From: Escherichia coli
GTDB taxonomy: Bacteria; Pseudomonadota; Gammaproteobacteria; Enterobacterales; Enterobacteriaceae
NCBI RefSeq assembly: GCF_041886205.1
Contig: NZ_CP169029.1
Length of the DNA: 64,000 nt
Strand: one strand, 5' to 3'
Part shown: piece by piece, positions 23,778 to 27,752 of the stretch
Layout: each line of letters starts with the position of its first letter
How positions within the stretch are numbered: position 1 is the stretch's first letter
Made by a program: the position numbers and the translations under genes
Notes under the pieces: model-generated
Told to the model about the DNA's origin: nothing
The model's input: only the letters and a program-made list of their open reading frames with translations
The model's database searches: none

Positions 23778-25067
23778 ATGACAACGGACGATCTTGCCTT
23801 TGACCAACGCCATATCTGGCACCCATACACATCCATGACCTCCCCTCTGCCGGTTTATCCGGTGGTGAGCGCCGAAGGTTGCGAGCTGATTTTGTCTGAC
23901 GGCAGACGCCTGGTTGACGGTATGTCGTCCTGGTGGGCGGCGATCCACGGCTACAATCACCCGCAGCTTAATGCGGCGATGAAGTCGCAAATTGATGCCA
24001 TGTCGCATGTGATGTTTGGCGGTATCACCCATGCGCCAGCCATTGAGCTGTGCCGCAAACTGGTGGCGATGACGCCGCAACCGCTGGAGTGCGTTTTTCT
24101 CGCGGACTCCGGTTCCGTAGCGGTGGAAGTGGCGATGAAAATGGCGTTGCAGTACTGGCAAGCCAAAGGCGAAGCGCGCCAGCGTTTTCTGACCTTCCGC
24201 AATGGTTATCATGGCGATACCTTTGGCGCGATGTCGGTGTGCGATCCGGATAACTCAATGCACAGTCTGTGGAAAGGCTACCTGCCAGAAAACCTGTTTG
24301 CTCCCGCCCCGCAAAGCCGCATGGATGGCGAATGGGATGAGCGCGATATGGTGGGCTTTGCCCGCCTGATGGCGGCGCATCGTCATGAAATCGCGGCGGT
24401 GATCATTGAGCCGATTGTCCAGGGCGCAGGCGGGATGCGCATGTACCATCCGGAATGGTTAAAACGAATCCGCAAAATGTGCGATCGCGAAGGTATCTTG
24501 CTGATTGCCGACGAGATCGCCACCGGATTTGGTCGTACCGGCAAACTGTTTGCCTGTGAATATGCAGAAATCGCGCCGGACATTTTGTGCCTCGGTAAAG
24601 CCTTAACCGGCGGCACAATGACCCTTTCCGCCACACTTACCACGCGCGAGGTTGCAGAAACCATCAGTAACGGCGAAGCCGGCTGCTTTATGCATGGGCC
24701 AACTTTTATGGGCAATCCGCTGGCCTGCGCGGCAGCAAACGCCAGCCTGGCGATTATCGAATCCGGCGAATGGCAGCAGCAGGTGGCGGCTATTGAAGTG
24801 CAGCTGCGCGAGCAACTGGCACCAGCCCGTGATGCCGAAATGGTTGCCGATGTGCGCGTACTGGGGGCAATCGGTGTGGTCGAAACCACTCGTCCGGTGA
24901 ATATGGCGGCGCTGCAAAAATTCTTTGTCGAACAGGGTGTCTGGATCCGGCCTTTTGGCAAACTGATTTACCTGATGCCGCCCTATATTATTCTCCCGCA
25001 ACAGTTGCAGCGTCTGACCGCAGCGGTTAACCGCGCGGTACAGGATGAAACATTTTTTTGCCAATAA
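23778..25067 (+). CDS. bioA: adenosylmethionine-8-amino-7-oxononanoate aminotransferase BioA
   Basis: start taken at [10 protein letters not shown] giving 429 aa; PLP class III aminotransferase. Confidence 0.95.
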
Positions 25068-25125: not shown

Positions 25126-25602
25126 ATGAAACTCATCAGTAACGATCTGCGCGATGGCGATAAATTGCCGCATCGTCATGTCTTTAACGGCATGGGTTAC
25201 GATGGCGATAATATTTCACCGCATCTGGCGTGGGATGATGTTCCTGCGGGAACGAAAAGTTTTGTTGTCACCTGCTACGACCCGGATGCGCCAACCGGCT
25301 CCGGCTGGTGGCACTGGGTAGTTGTTAACTTACCCGCTGATACCCGCGTATTACCGCAAGGGTTTGGCTCTGGTCTGGTAGCAATGCCAGACGGCGTTTT
25401 GCAGACGCGTACCGACTTTGGTAAAACCGGGTACGATGGCGCAGCACCGCCGAAAGGCGAAACTCATCGCTACATTTTTACCGTTCACGCGCTGGATATA
25501 GAACGTATTGATGTCGATGAAGGTGCCAGCGGCGCGATGGTCGGGTTTAACGTTCATTTCCACTCTCTGGCAAGCGCCTCGATTACTGCGATGTTTAGTT
25601 AA
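25126..25602 (+). CDS. ybhB: PEBP-family protein YbhB
   Basis: 158 aa; last chromosomal gene before the prophage attR. Confidence 0.85.
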   Translation: MKLISNDLRDGDKLPHRHVFNGMGYDGDNISPHLAWDDVPAGTKSFVVTCYDPDAPTGSGWWHWVVVNLPADTRVLPQGFGSGLVAMPDGVLQTRTDFGKTGYDGAAPPKGETHRYIFTVHALDIERIDVDEGASGAMVGFNVHFHSLASASITAMFS

Positions 25603-25692
25603 TCACTCTGCCAGATGGCGCAATGCCATCTGGTATCACTTAAAGGTATTAAAAACAACTTTTTGTCTTTTTACCTTCCCGTTTCGCTCAAG

Positions 25693-25707
25693 TTAGTATA
25701 AAAAAGC
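25693..25707. other. prophage attR core (lambda att common core, P-O-B' arrangement)
   Basis: TTAGTATAAAAAAGC (reverse complement of GCTTTTTTATACTAA) flanked by the bacterial B' arm (CTTGAGCG) on one side and a lambda-like P arm on the other. Confidence 0.85.
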
Positions 25708-25852
25708 TGAACGCGAAACATTAAAAACCATTAATATCAATGTGTTACAATATCTTTAGTCTAAAAAATAGACTACATGATGCTACAAAACACAACATAT
25801 CCAGTCACTATGAATCAACTACTTAGATAGTATTAGTGACCTGAGACAGAGC

Positions 25853-25894
25853 ATTAGCGCAAGGTGATTTTTGTCTTCTTGCGCTAATTTTTTG
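25853..25894 (+). terminator. intrinsic terminator, probably the tI/sib-equivalent of the int transcript
   Basis: perfect 11 bp stem (ATTAGCGCAAG/CTTGCGCTAAT) followed by a T-run, about 150 bp beyond the att core on the P-arm side. Confidence 0.5.
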
Positions 25895-26055
25895 TTATCA
25901 AACATGTCGCACTCCAGAGAAGCACAAAGCCTTGCAATCCAGTGCAAAGATTTGTGTGCCTCAGTTTTGTCTAAGTGTTCTACTGAAAACATAGTAAAAT
26001 CGGCAACAGCTGGAAATCATTCAATACTCGCACTATCGAAAGTTCACCAGCCAAC

Positions 26056-26095
26056 CGCAGCACGTTCTTGCATACGACGTGCTGCGGTTTTCTTT
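26056..26095 (+). terminator. intrinsic terminator hairpin
   Basis: CCGCAGCACGT...ACGTGCTGCGG stem followed by TTTTCTTT. Confidence 0.5.
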
Positions 26096-26246
26096 ATGAT
26101 TTATGCACAATGGACAATTTGAAATTATTGATGATTGTATGGTGCATCGTTTTCTGAACCTACACTGATTTTTTGGTATAGCCTTGCCTAGCCAGTCTTA
26201 CCGGATCAAACTCTTCGCTATTGCAATACTAACCAAAATCATCAAT

Positions 26247-26276
26247 TTGACAGCGATTAACCAGAATAATAGTATA
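26247..26276 (+). promoter_or_regulatory. candidate sigma70 promoter for the GGDEF gene
   Basis: consensus -35 TTGACA, 17 bp spacer, -10-like TAGTAT, about 75 bp upstream of the start codon. Confidence 0.4.
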
Positions 26277-26347
26277 CTATCACCAGTAAGAAATTATCGT
26301 TATTTGTAGCGATACATATTATATATATATCATTCTCAGGTGCGTAC

Positions 26348-27679
26348 ATGATTATCAACCAGGTACCTATAAAAATAAAAATCTTCATCTTTTTATTTTC
26401 ATGCATCTCTATTATATTTTTGTTACTGCATGAAAATAATGGAATATACATAACACAAACAACACAAATAAGTTATAGTGTTTTCATTATTGGGCTTTTT
26501 TTCATAAACCTGATGATTTTTATTTTTCTATTGCTTTACTATGTTTCTAATCAGAGACAAAGTTATCTCTTAATTCTTTCATTCGCGTTTTTGAGCAACA
26601 CGTATTATTTATTAGAAGTGGCTATTATTTCTTTATCTCCGTTAGGTAACGATTTATCTACAATCTATCAGAAATCAAATGATATCGCAATATATTATCT
26701 ATTCCGTCAGCTCAGCTTTATATCTATAATCTTTCTGGCTGTTTATTCCACCAATGTTAAAAATAAAAGTGTTTTAGAAGATAAAAGAAACATAATAATT
26801 GTTGTTTTGTCAATATTAATTCTTTTTATTACTCCGTTTGTAGCAAAAAATCTAAGCAGTGACAATATAAAATATAGTCTTAATATTATACAATACTCGC
26901 TGAATCGTCATTTGCCGACGTGGAATATCGTGTACACCAAAATAATATCAGTATTTTGGCTTGTATTACTTATCAGCTCATGCATCAGCATACGTAATTA
27001 CTCAAAAATATGGTTGTGTATAATACTTATTAGTATAGTGTCAGTATGCAATAATCTAATTTTATTGTATTTTATTGATAAATCCCATCCTGCATGGTAC
27101 ATGACAAAATTTCTTGAGTTGATATCAATGATTTATATCATTTCAACACTCATGTATTATGTTTTCAGGAAATTAAATCATGCTAATCATATGGCAATTC
27201 ATGATCCACTAACGAATACATACAATAGAAGATACTTTATTGACTCATTGAAGAATATATCAAAACACCATGATTTCTCAGTAATAATGTTAGATATTGA
27301 CAGTTTCAAAAGCATCAATGACAAATGGGGGCATCATATGGGTGATCAAGTCATAGTAATGGTTACCAGAATAATAAAAAAATCCATCAGGAAAGAGGAT
27401 ATATTAGGGCGCTTAGGCGGTGAGGAGTTCGGTATTATCATTAAAGGTAATACTCAAAAGCTCTTGCTATCAATTGCAGAGCGAATCAGAAAAAACATTG
27501 AAGAGCAATGCTCGGAAAAATTATTATCGCATGGACCTGAGAAAATAACTGTCAGTATTGGTTGCTTTACTTCAAAAGAGAATAATCTCAGCCCATCTGA
27601 AATGTTAGTCAATGCCGATAAAGCGTTATATCAAGCCAAAAGAACCGGAAAAAACAAGGTGATAATTCACTCAAAATAA
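26348..27679 (+). CDS. dgcX: membrane-anchored diguanylate cyclase (GGDEF domain), DgcX-like prophage cargo gene
   Basis: 443 aa; about 270 aa very hydrophobic multi-TM N-terminus, C-terminal GGDEF domain with active-site GGEEF and an RKED (RxxD) I-site five residues upstream; strongly AT-rich; symbol assigned from memory of a DGC reported at this locus. Confidence 0.8.
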   Translation: MIINQVPIKIKIFIFLFSCISIIFLLLHENNGIYITQTTQISYSVFIIGLFFINLMIFIFLLLYYVSNQRQSYLLILSFAFLSNTYYLLEVAIISLSPLGNDLSTIYQKSNDIAIYYLFRQLSFISIIFLAVYSTNVKNKSVLEDKRNIIIVVLSILILFITPFVAKNLSSDNIKYSLNIIQYSLNRHLPTWNIVYTKIISVFWLVLLISSCISIRNYSKIWLCIILISIVSVCNNLILLYFIDKSHPAWYMTKFLELISMIYIISTLMYYVFRKLNHANHMAIHDPLTNTYNRRYFIDSLKNISKHHDFSVIMLDIDSFKSINDKWGHHMGDQVIVMVTRIIKKSIRKEDILGRLGGEEFGIIIKGNTQKLLLSIAERIRKNIEEQCSEKLLSHGPEKITVSIGCFTSKENNLSPSEMLVNADKALYQAKRTGKNKVIIHSK

Positions 27680-27708
27680 ACACCTTTTTAAAATACAGCC
27701 CCAATAAA

Positions 27709-27741
27709 CTGCAGAATATTATCCCATATAATATCCTGCAG
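27709..27741. terminator. bidirectional hairpin between the convergent GGDEF and tfa genes
   Basis: near-perfect 14 bp inverted repeat CTGCAGAATATTAT...ATAATATCCTGCAG. Confidence 0.5.
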
Positions 27742-27752
27742 TTCGTAATGCA

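Follow-up and report, generated by a model that had tools for sequence, protein, structure and literature searches.

The non-coding segment at positions 25,708 to 26,347 of the 64-kb E. coli stretch analyzed here (the window) is best explained as a whole, with a probability of about 0.85, as the attR-proximal end of a decayed, defective lambda-type prophage of about 20 kb at att-lambda. Rightwards from the att core, the order of elements is P arm, sib/tI, a segment that we call block B, a 96-bp repeated block and the dgcX promoter. The locus is an ordinary one, composed of the lambda sib/tI element, leftovers from the integration regions of other phages and the promoter of dgcX, all of it already known. 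The finding re-identifies the classical lambda sib/tI at an attR junction next to the already described dgcX, and is of little import for the locus itself.

The attR end of a lambda-type prophage

To one side of the prophage lie bioBFCD, bioA and ybhB, to the other ybhC. It has int, xis and both att cores, and its gene content is that of a defective phage. Directly after ybhB (25126-25602) comes the att core (O) of attR (P-O-B') at 25693-25707. This 15-mer, TTAGTATAAAAAAGC, is the reverse complement of the lambda core, GCTTTTTTATACTAA, and is found exactly both here, where the misc_recomb feature of lambda aligns, and at the attL core (45634-45648), the prophage lying between ybhB and ybhC. 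The P arm of a lambda-type attP follows, at 25708-25852 by alignment to lambda. The lambda 'int 1' and 'int 2' binding features, mapped by alignment, mark the Int arm sites P2 (~25797-25816) and P1 (~25829-25848), and two IHF consensus sites are present, at 25735-25747 and 25813-25825, with matches CAGTCACTAT and WATCAANNNNTTR. Together with the core, these sites show that the labels 'P arm' and 'attR', given to this stretch in an earlier reading of the sequence only, were right. Over 25689-25960 the window is 88.6% identical to lambda 27742-27471. The lambda-type int at the other end of the prophage (44490-45560, plus strand) encodes a protein of 356 aa with Phage_integrase and lambda Arm-DNA-binding domains, 99.4% identical to the Int of HK97, and xis (~44293-44511) lies just upstream of it.

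The first hairpin and lambda sib/tI

Judged by its sequence and position, hairpin 1 (25853-25894) is the lambda sib/tI element, which occupies 25846-25900 on the plus strand, with the tI hairpin at 25853-25888 and the U-tract at 25889-25894. Its arms, ATTAGCGCAAG and CTTGCGCTAAT, form a perfect 11-bp stem (12 pairs with a G.U) over 25853-25888, followed by TTTTTTG to 25894. The sequence-only reading had placed here a terminator with a perfect 11-bp stem, on the strand and side where the int transcript of the circular phage would end, had named sib/tI as a possible identity, and had proposed alignment to lambda and RNA structure prediction as checks. The hairpin is real, lies on the plus strand and has a U-rich tail, and both checks bear the identity out. 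A run of 47 consecutive nt (CAGAGC...TTTTTTGT) is identical to lambda 27537-27583, and the minimum free energy (MFE) of the fold over 25853-25894 is -18.8 kcal/mol (z = -7.1), with 0/200 shuffles as good, against -24 kcal/mol and likewise 0/200 shuffles for hairpin 2. In support of that, the distance from hairpin to core equals that of lambda, 153-194 nt (lambda core 27724-27738, hairpin with U-tract 27537-27578), and the homologous position in HK97 is annotated as 'sib retroregulation site'. After excision, the hairpin lies on the P-arm side, beyond int across attP and on the int-sense strand. Moreover, a cognate lambda-type int with xis and an intact attL core is found within the same element.

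With its flanks (25845-25900), hairpin 1 folds at an MFE of -25.6 kcal/mol (z = -6.75). The lambda counterpart adopts the same structure at -24.3 kcal/mol, the z value being about -6.7 for both lambda and the window. Seven additional pairs in this longer fold come from the U-tract and GUU, as they do in lambda, and the longer stem (25845-25896) can be formed by read-through transcripts. This stem is probably the counterpart of the RNase III (sib) site of lambda, so that the window would contain a putative RNase III site, and termination at hairpin 1 in this strain is likewise a prediction. Mutations of sib map within the stem of the lambda tI hairpin, and the RNase III step of lambda sib retroregulation was reportedly worked out by Guarneros in 1982 and Schmeissner in 1984.

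The retroregulation of int by sib is established (Schindler & Echols 1981, as cited in PMC5300877). While the phage DNA is circular or infecting, transcripts of int would traverse attP into sib/tI. Those from pI would end at tI and be stable, and antiterminated transcripts from pL would pass tI and complete the longer stem, leading to an RNase III cut and to decay of the int mRNA from its 3' end. In the integrated state sib is uncoupled from int because the two lie about 19 kb apart, at opposite ends of the prophage, and sib would serve only as an ordinary terminator for transcription leaving bioA-ybhB. The element resembles that of lambda in the hairpin and U-tract, identical over 47 nt, and in the same predicted extended stem. 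It differs in its location within an integrated, defective prophage, physically separated from int, in two flanking bases per side (GAGA in the window versus GTAA, and GTTATC versus GTCATC), and in what comes after it, which is HK106/phi80-like in the window, whereas in lambda it is the ea59 region.

Four loci in the 64-kb window have a perfect inverted repeat with a stem of at least 11 and a loop of 3-15, versus a mean of 0.22 (maximum 2) in 100 block shuffles, and of these four only hairpins 1 and 2 have T-rich tails on the plus strand. A standard terminator scan with a loop limit of 8 called none of the three hairpins of the interval; hairpins 1 and 2 were missed because of that limit.

A mosaic between the hairpins

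The approximately 160 nt between hairpins 1 and 2 are a mosaic of three unrelated pieces, namely a linker, block B and the first 60 nt of the 96-bp block. The lambda-type linker (25901-25917) is conserved in lambda, HK106 and phi80; 434 has another sequence in its place, and HK97 has lost it. Block B (25918-25992, plus strand) comprises a third hairpin and a linker. The hairpin, imperfect and absent from the sequence-only reading, reads GCACAAAGCCTTGCA-ATCCAG-TGCAAAGATTTGTGTGC at ~25922-25957, with the tail CTCAGTTTTGTCT, and is kept in lambda (27473-27510), 434, HK106, phi80, the Stx2 phage 1717 and HK542; block B folds at -17.2 kcal/mol, with z values of -2.8 on the plus and -3.1 on the minus strand. 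In the alignment of IntS-type loci, homology to block B begins at the intS stop codon, and remnants of the intS 3' end are still found upstream of block B in 1717 and 434. This suggests that block B is a fossil 3' flank of a different integrase module, its own hairpin included, at which transcription in this strain may terminate.

The boundaries of homology fall at different points within the segment. Lambda homology stops at 25960, that of HK106 and phi80 extends to 26097, HK97 lacks about 25897-25992, which is two thirds of the inter-hairpin segment, and the homology of strain M8 and of the lambda b-region copy of the 96-bp block both begin at 25986. HK97, HK106 and phi80 have in common with the window the order int-attP-sib-(block B)-96-bp block-convergent tail-fibre genes, an identity of 93-97% from the core to 26097, and a tail after hairpin 2 in which the stop of the converging tail-fibre gene survives. 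Unlike them, the window has a 1.65-kb dgcX cassette between hairpin 2 and tfa; moreover, HK97 is without block B, and both HK97 and HK106 have a 1-nt bulge in hairpin 2. The sib-block-dgcX arrangement is found in ~760 genomes.

The 96-bp block (25993-26088, plus strand) is a homologue of an ecpE-ykgJ intergenic sequence and ends in hairpin 2. Its 5' part is near-invariant, with a stem GCUGG (26009-26013) / CCAGC (26047-26051). The block was found in 5416 of 5426 complete E. coli genomes (~99.8%), at a median of 4 copies; the window holds a single one. The core-genome copy, between ecpE and ykgJ at about 304204-304310 on the minus strand of NC_000913.3, is 87.9% identical to that of the window, and the lambda copy lies in the b region, between ea31 and ea47. 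Nearly half of the distinct copies (30/64) begin where a dinI-like gene ends, directly behind its stop codon; an integrase gene, of one of at least five types, is found upstream on the same strand in 30/80 copies. A dinI remnant was sought in the spacer at 25895-25992, where no significant similarity was seen beyond ~17 nt beside the block. Many lambdoid phages carry the block just downstream of int/att, where it most often forms the 3' UTR of a dinI-like gene, and one copy has become fixed between ecpE and ykgJ in E. coli. As a whole, the block is a recurrent recombination joint. Neither Rfam nor genome annotation has an entry for it. More generally, sib/tI, block B and the 96-bp block are left unlabelled by annotation pipelines, though few non-coding sequences are repeated as widely in E. 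coli prophages.

The second hairpin

Hairpin 2 with its U-rich tail (26053-26099, plus strand) has the arms AACCGCAGCACGT and ACGTGCTGCGGTT, which form a perfect 13-bp stem at 26053-26089 (14 pairs in the fold), the loop TCTTGCATACG and the tail TTCTTTATGA, in which TTCTTTATG directly follows the stem. The z value of its fold at -24 kcal/mol is -5.4, and 7 T are found in the 9 nt after the stem CCGCAG...CTGCGG. In the alignment of the block, which comprised 57 distinct copies, both sides had changed in 8 of the 13 pairs. Compensated cells numbered 43 versus 12 +/- 4.8 in shuffles (0/500), and slid controls scored much lower. The ratio of G.U to A.C across copies, 53:15, favours an RNA of the plus strand. 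These data point to hairpin 2 as a hairpin of the intrinsic-terminator type on the plus strand, its structure kept by compensatory change, which would work as a terminator or as a 3'-end hairpin; termination activity in this strain is a prediction. In about 60% of copies, 5 or more of the 9 nt following the hairpin are T. Since the remaining ~40% have no T-rich tail, hairpin 2 does not make a full terminator in every copy. The tail TTTATGA doubles, in phi80 and HK542, as the last codon and stop (TCATAA) of the convergent tail-fibre gene.

The 'second strong terminator' claimed for 26056-26095, which falls within hairpin 2 and its tail, is a real, covarying plus-strand hairpin, but it is the 3' end of a 96-bp repeat and not specific to this locus.

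The 96-bp block as a possible attachment site

Nakamura 2021 (PLoS Pathog, PMC8112680) described a 96-bp att sequence, 'attB-in-PP_2', which is homologous to the ykgJ/ecpE intergenic region and flanks lambda-like prophages nested in defective prophages (prophage-in-prophage) in EPEC and STEC. Going by the coordinates and percentages in the text of that paper, the 96-bp block of the window appears to correspond to attB-in-PP_2 by position. The flanks given there account for 184 + 96 + 29 = 309 of the 312 bp between ecpE and ykgJ, so the block begins at position 185, and the window matches positions 185-293 of the intergenic region at 88%. Moreover, the identity for Stx2a-yecE-type phages, 84%, is the same as the figure in Nakamura 2021. 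The two sequences are alike in that 25993-26088 is 88% identical to the designated part of the ecpE-ykgJ region and lies near the end of a defective lambda-like prophage. In contrast to the published sites, the copy in the window is associated with dgcX rather than with a type III effector locus and has no phage integrated at it, and the relatives found here occur in nearly all E. coli and in lambda, whereas the paper reports prophages of EPEC and STEC.

Among the alternatives, the one that survives best, though we consider it doubtful, is that the block is a live secondary attachment site beside dgcX, at which another lambda-like phage could insert to yield a prophage-in-prophage, its inverted repeat being a recombinase core site rather than primarily an RNA element. 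Besides the homology of the 96-bp att sequence of Nakamura 2021 (PMC8112680) to the same part of the ecpE-ykgJ region, this reading can draw on the fact that homology between contexts breaks exactly at both ends of the block, on the loop TTCTTGCATACGA, which is more conserved than the arms, and on the defective state of the host prophage, a situation that is favourable according to the same paper. However, the arms covary with frequent G.U pairs, which is a signature of RNA and not of protein half-sites. No integrase is tied to the block, which lies downstream of at least five integrase types, and an identity of ~100 bp common to many prophages could yield the same junctions via homologous recombination. 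The window contains one copy, not a pair enclosing an integrated prophage and its cognate integrase; the site is therefore unoccupied, with nothing integrated there now. An assignment of the block to IntS-type integrases, suggested by loci with intS, block B, the block and a ykgJ-like flank in a row, was rejected because argW, upstream of intS, is where these elements are inserted, and their ykgJ-like gene is an internal paralogue. As a recurrent mosaic joint and reported attachment sequence, the block may explain the movement of dgcX-like cargo between prophages, and it may mark where further phages could dock in this strain.

RNA and protein readings of the segment

It is unlikely that the 96-bp block is a conserved regulatory RNA derived from a 3' UTR, or a sib-like, general retroregulatory element of the 'end of int operon' type, domesticated at ecpE-ykgJ. 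If true, the block and block B would constitute an undescribed RNA module controlling the expression of int and dinI or of host targets. The first 60 nt of the block show no stronger conservation than does the dinI gene next to them where that gene is intact, and for this reason their conservation may reflect recent spread rather than function and is in itself no argument for a function as RNA.

Slightly less probable still is that a small RNA or stable 3' fragment, as the sequence-only reading had proposed for the ~160 nt separating the hairpins, with a function of its own, comes from these ~160 nt or from the ~100 nt up to and including hairpin 2. Such a molecule could be a processed product of read-through at tI or of a dinI-type 3' UTR, binding Hfq or ProQ. 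The region 25895-26105 does fold at -57.9 kcal/mol (z -3.7), and the 96-bp block alone at -32.2 kcal/mol (z -3.65); the segment ends in a covarying plus-strand hairpin with a U-tail; the block hardly varies in its 5' 60 nt from one unrelated context to the next; and preservation is higher for the ecpE-ykgJ copy (88%) than for the dinI remnant beside it (about 76%, by eye). However, intact dinI is as conserved as the block. The promoter scan gave no plus-strand promoter-like site at 25212-26247, where the best candidate found by hand scored 8/12, and the flanks upstream of the block vary by context. Rfam, searched with this region of the window and with its counterparts in lambda, DN1, HK97 and HK106, gave no family at threshold and only a sub-threshold match, to CssrB. 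The block is unannotated in curated K-12 and RefSeq records. Literature searches for the block sequence and for small RNAs of the ecpE-ykgJ region found no paper with this sequence and no small RNA at the block, nor is there one in the text of the Hfq-CRAC supplement of Tree 2014. Furthermore, HK97, a viable phage, does without two thirds of the inter-hairpin segment. The analysis gave no sign of a new small RNA gene at this locus, and the proposal finds no support in a mosaic segment with no plus-strand promoter-like site and no Rfam family at threshold that is mostly missing in HK97. Two candidates from elsewhere were also set aside: EcsR2 (Raghavan 2015) belongs to the neighbouring yagU-ykgJ region, and an 'antisense RNA' annotated in phage DN1 (from BL21(DE3)) on the minus strand, over the lambda stretch that corresponds to 25898-26059, is unsupported in Rfam and RefSeq.

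We regard it as very improbable that hairpin 2 serves the minus strand, whether as the 3' end of a CssrB-like RNA, as the end of a leftward transcript from near the dgcX start, or, in intact relatives, as the end of a late tail-fibre operon. The Rfam model of CssrB (RF02799), the Shigella flexneri chromosomal sRNA B, with a northern band of ~180 nt in that species, aligns with 26056-26151 through hairpin 2 at 44.1 bits (E 1.4e-7). In addition, phi80 and HK542 have a distance of 4-5 nt between the end of the convergent tail-fibre gene and the hairpin, and the minus strand has a weak promoter-like site at 26358-26329. Yet 44.1 bits are far under the gathering threshold of 76 bits. Only the terminal hairpin aligns, on the opposite strand, and ~120 nt from the body of the model have no counterpart here; the sub-threshold match is explained by the hairpin sequence that the two have in common. 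The 3' end of CssrB itself comes from a terminator prediction and not from mapping. As for the minus strand of the window, no U-tract follows hairpin 2 (GGCUGGUG), and the G.U:A.C ratio of 53:15 favours the plus strand.

The least credible reading is that of a small protein, of 57 aa (minus strand, 25992-25819) or of 83 aa from TTG (plus strand, 25871-26122), or of a CII-dependent promoter driving such an ORF. Both ORFs are open, and several phage records annotate a 'hypothetical protein' here, OL657226 having CII boxes and a 49-aa ORF. They were rejected, however, as neither has a Shine-Dalgarno sequence and both overlap the sib hairpin, in which a 1-nt insertion in HK106 and phi80 shifts the frame, and HK97 deletes most of the segment; their N-termini vary from phage to phage, as homology stops at 25960. 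The earlier judgement that the segment holds no convincing ORF was correct. A CII-dependent promoter is annotated in one phage 434 record, and its motif, TTGCN6TTGC (25934-25947, minus strand), is kept in lambda, 434, HK106, phi80 and the window. The idea was nonetheless discarded, since the motif occurs 6 times in the window versus about 2 expected and is not distinctive, and since its presence is explained by its location inside the palindrome of the block B hairpin; the would-be -10 (TTCTCT) is also poor.

The dgcX promoter region

To the right of hairpin 2, the AT-rich stretch at 26104-26347 is the promoter region of dgcX on the plus strand. It includes TTGACA-17-TAGTAT (26247-26275), the top promoter-like site of the scan (10/12), and a Shine-Dalgarno sequence, AGGTG (26338-26342), ahead of the gene. 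The product of dgcX (26348-27679, plus strand), a prophage cargo gene, is a MASE4-GGDEF diguanylate cyclase (Pfam MASE4 7.8e-36, GGDEF 3.5e-44). Richter 2014 (EMBO Mol Med, PMC4287979) described dgcX at the lambda attB locus, beside lambdoid prophage DNA, and found that a single-copy dgcX::lacZ fusion was very strongly expressed, with contributions of sigma-70 and RpoS. The primers of that study match the window, and the published fusion covers about 25945-26365 of it. As this promoter fragment includes the strong terminator hairpin, the active promoter must lie in the 250 nt after it. The locus in the window is the same as the published one in gene, attB position and upstream region (Richter 2014, PMC4287979); the paper is silent on sib, block B and the 96-bp block, all of them located in or next to its promoter fragment. 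EAEC 55989, O104:H4 and ETEC H10407 are among the dgcX-positive strains.

The three tandem plus-strand hairpins may insulate the strongly expressed dgcX cassette from leftward or upstream transcription, and in the intact relatives the same tandem hairpins would insulate the convergent tail-fibre genes. A region homologous to the dgcX upstream region is also found in strain M8. The last 250 nt of the interval, which the sequence-only reading had left unexplained, are the dgcX promoter region.

The attR junction and its sib/tI hairpin

In the chromosomal flank of the element, bioF and bioB are minus-strand genes and bioA and ybhB (25126–25602) plus-strand genes; a λ att core (TTAGTATAAAAAAGC, 25693–25707) lies downstream of ybhB. 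A second λ core (45634–45648) lies just after xis and the λ-type int gene (44490–45560; Phage_integrase and λ arm-binding domains) and before ybhC. A defective lambdoid prophage fills the approximately 20 kb between the two cores. If a 1307-bp insertion of the window is disregarded, the genome NZ_AP045833 is 99.98% identical to it; the annotation of that genome lists remnants here, among them truncated J, lom and O, and as cargo a diguanylate cyclase, a porin, trkG and emrE. The core positions, with int and xis at the other end, thus make the junction beside ybhB attR (P-O-B'), as the sequence-only reading had it. At attL, a perfect 14-bp inverted repeat (TGCTTTTTTATAAT...AGTATAAAAAAGCA; 45614–45649) is made up of the core together with the P' sequence next to it. 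The 1307-bp insertion (39900–41206), IS-like by its size, contains three short plus-strand ORFs (108, 129 and 163 aa).

In λ, pI transcripts terminate at tI, while at sib RNase III cuts antiterminated pL transcripts (work of 1982–84), upon which int mRNA decays; integration separates sib from int. Hairpin 1 (25853–25894), previously read as an intrinsic terminator, pairs perfectly over 11 bp (12 pairs counting a G·U; 25853–25888), continues with six U, and folds with −18.8 kcal/mol (z −7.1). Window 25689–25960 is 88.6% identical to λ 27742–27471, and a 47-nt run of the alignment, CAGAGC to UUUUUUGU, is the same in the window, λ and 434. The hairpin stands as far from the att core as in λ, the P arm retains its Int arm sites and IHF consensus sites, and in HK97 the homologous stretch is annotated as 'sib retroregulation site'. 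Hairpin 1 is λ sib/tI, which supports the possibility raised by the sequence-only reading, and its biology is already known from textbooks; PMC5300877 cites Schindler and Echols (1981) for the retroregulation of λ int by sib. When the flanks were included in the folding, the window and λ gave the same longer stem incorporating the U-tract (−25.6 and −24.3 kcal/mol), the predicted form open only to read-through transcripts. In the window, sib is parted from int by the entire prophage, and in the present integrated state its sole possible action would be to stop transcription out of bioA–ybhB.

The segment between the two hairpins is a mosaic

Rather than being one unit, the 160 nt that separate the hairpins form a mosaic. 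Homology to λ ends at 25960, that to HK106 and phi80 extends to 26097, HK97 is devoid of about 25897–25992, and a start at 25986 is common to λ's own second match and the dgcX locus of strain M8. Part of the mosaic, which we call block B (25918–25992), contains an imperfect but conserved third hairpin (about 25922–25957; −17 kcal/mol, z about −3 on either strand), found also in λ (27473–27510), 434, HK106, phi80, Stx2 phage 1717 and HK542. In IntS-type elements the block B sequence starts at the intS stop codon and is followed by the same linker and then by a 96-bp block, which in the window occupies 25993–26088 and ends in hairpin 2; in phages 1717 and 434, remnants of the intS 3' end precede block B. 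From this arrangement, 25918–25992 looks like the 3' flank of another integrase module, a relic of int/att module exchange.

That the segment has no convincing ORF was borne out. Its 57-aa minus-strand ORF and its 83-aa plus-strand ORF (TTG start) lack a Shine–Dalgarno sequence, and both are broken in relatives, by one additional nucleotide in the sib loop in HK106 and phi80 and by the deletion of approximately 95 nt in HK97. The minus-strand sequence TTGCACTGGATTGC (25934–25947) fits the CII box TTGCN6TTGC; it lies within the palindrome of the block B hairpin, TTGCAA being self-complementary, and since the motif is present six times in the window, the match is probably fortuitous. In the phage 434 record OL657226, a CII site (1838–1861 in the fetched sequence L007) is annotated together with a 49-aa ORF.

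The sequence-only reading had also seen a possible stable 3' fragment or small RNA here. Although the segment is structured and has a good terminator at its end, the promoter scan found no plus-strand promoter-like site between 25212 and 26247, and no Rfam family reached its threshold in the window or in the λ, HK97, HK106 and DN1 loci; a CssrB match scored 44 bits against the required 76, lay on the opposite strand and covered the hairpin alone. Neither curated K-12 nor RefSeq annotation marks the segment or the 96-bp block, and the sequence was not found in the literature and supplements searched. With the mosaic make-up of the segment, this leaves the proposal unsupported, and an independent or processed functional RNA is quite improbable. 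In phage DN1 (MF374379; 1799–1960 in the fetched sequence L006, minus strand), a 162-nt 'antisense RNA' is annotated by similarity to BL21(DE3) CP001509. It corresponds roughly to λ 27372–27533 and window 25898–26059, nearly filling the inter-hairpin space on the strand opposite to the proposed small RNA, and has no Rfam family or RefSeq annotation in support.

Hairpin 2 covaries within a widely repeated 96-bp block

In hairpin 2 (26053–26089), a perfect 13-bp stem, with 14 pairs when folded, is followed by the tail UUCUUUAUG; like hairpin 1, this structure is predicted to fold stably (−24 kcal/mol, z −5.4). Perfectly paired inverted repeats (stem of at least 11, loop of 3–15) occur at four loci in the 64 kb, compared with 0.22 per shuffle, and a T-rich plus-strand tail comes after hairpins 1 and 2 only; the built-in terminator scan missed both because its loop limit is 8. 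The hairpins noticed in the sequence-only reading are confirmed. Inside the prophage, a perfect 13-bp inverted repeat rich in AT (34822–34856; TTATAAAGAAAAC...GTTTTCTTTATAA-like) is flanked on either side by A-rich and T-rich sequence and is a possible bidirectional terminator.

Among 57 distinct aligned copies, 8 of the 13 pairs of hairpin 2 show changes on both sides. The compensated cells number 43, against 12 ± 4.8 in shuffles (none of 500 reached 43), and slid controls gave far lower values; the inner stem GCUGG/CCAGC is invariant and hence uninformative. The prevalence of G·U over A·C (53:15) points to selection on the plus-strand RNA. The 5' 60 nt of the block, in copies with an intact dinI, are conserved no better than dinI, so their near-invariance is no evidence of an additional RNA function. 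The second strong terminator proposed at 26056–26095 is therefore a genuine covarying hairpin, but one that belongs to a widely repeated and previously reported 96-bp block.

A 115-nt query (25986–26100) matched 5416 of 5426 complete E. coli genomes, in each at up to 12 places (median 4). The near-universal copy (87.9% identity) lies between ecpE and ykgJ, where in K-12 and nearly all E. coli it directly follows a degenerate dinI-like 3' end. It bears no annotation, has compensatory changes in its hairpin and is probably the ecp operon terminator. In K-12 it is at about 304204–304310 of NC_000913.3, minus strand (3205–3311 in the fetched sequence L014); the corresponding stretch of L012 is 2930–3107. 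Phage copies start right after a dinI-like stop codon in 30 of 64 distinct cases, and five follow sib as in the window. The λ copy (89% identity; NC_001416 about 24162–24265, L009 1563–1666), on the leftward strand between ea31 and ea47, has no U-tail after the hairpin and is unannotated in the reference record. Of 80 copies, 30 have an integrase gene 95–540 nt upstream and in the same orientation, with at least five integrase types represented, and flanking homology stops exactly at both block ends.

According to Nakamura 2021 (PMC8112680), a 96-bp att sequence, 'attB-in-PP_2', bounds λ-like prophages nested in defective prophages; its origin is placed in the ykgJ/ecpE intergenic region, where the homologous flanks measure 184 and 29 bp, and it has 84% identity in Stx2a phages at yecE. 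In our comparison the ecpE–ykgJ region is 312 bp long, the block starts at its position 185, and identity to a phage of the Stx2a-yecE kind is 83.96%. By these published lengths and percentages, not by alignment, we equate window 25993–26088 with a copy of attB-in-PP_2. As only one copy is present in the window, it is unoccupied at present, and no integrase was identified that uses the block. IntS was considered as its user and rejected, since IntS-type elements are located at argW, on the upstream side of intS. There, the 'ykgJ' that follows the block is not the chromosomal gene but a paralogue within the element. One argW-integrated element (L088, 1009–2948) has, in a row, tRNA-Arg(CCU), intS, block B, the 96-bp block and a 110-aa ykgJ paralogue, an order that suggests a prophage origin for the surroundings of the chromosomal ykgJ as well. 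The viral contig L124 carries two dinI-plus-block copies 4 kb apart (318–712 and 4428–4810), the second abutting a ykgJ-like start; they could be a junction pair of the Nakamura 2021 kind.

The dgcX side of the interval

The tail UUUAUGA after hairpin 2 is the last codon and stop of a convergent tail-fibre gene in phi80 and HK542. Homology to these phages ends after it, and an AT-rich region then runs to the plus-strand MASE4–GGDEF gene at 26348–27679. This gene is dgcX, as the primers of Richter 2014 match the window; that study placed dgcX at λ attB, adjoining lambdoid prophage DNA. An argW prophage of strain M8 unites the block, the promoter region and dgcX, and thus the block marks the left joint of the dgcX cassette. 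The right-hand approximately 250 nt of the interval are the known dgcX promoter region. The single-copy dgcX lacZ fusion of Richter 2014 maps to about 25945–26365 and so includes hairpin 2; the promoter is therefore most likely downstream of this hairpin. The best candidate in the promoter scan, TTGACA-17-TAGTAT (26247–26275), is conserved in M8 only in part. In the space separating the stop codons of dgcX and the convergent tfa (27680–27752), an inverted repeat (CTGCAGAATATTAT...ATAATATCCTGCAG) is likely a terminator common to both genes.
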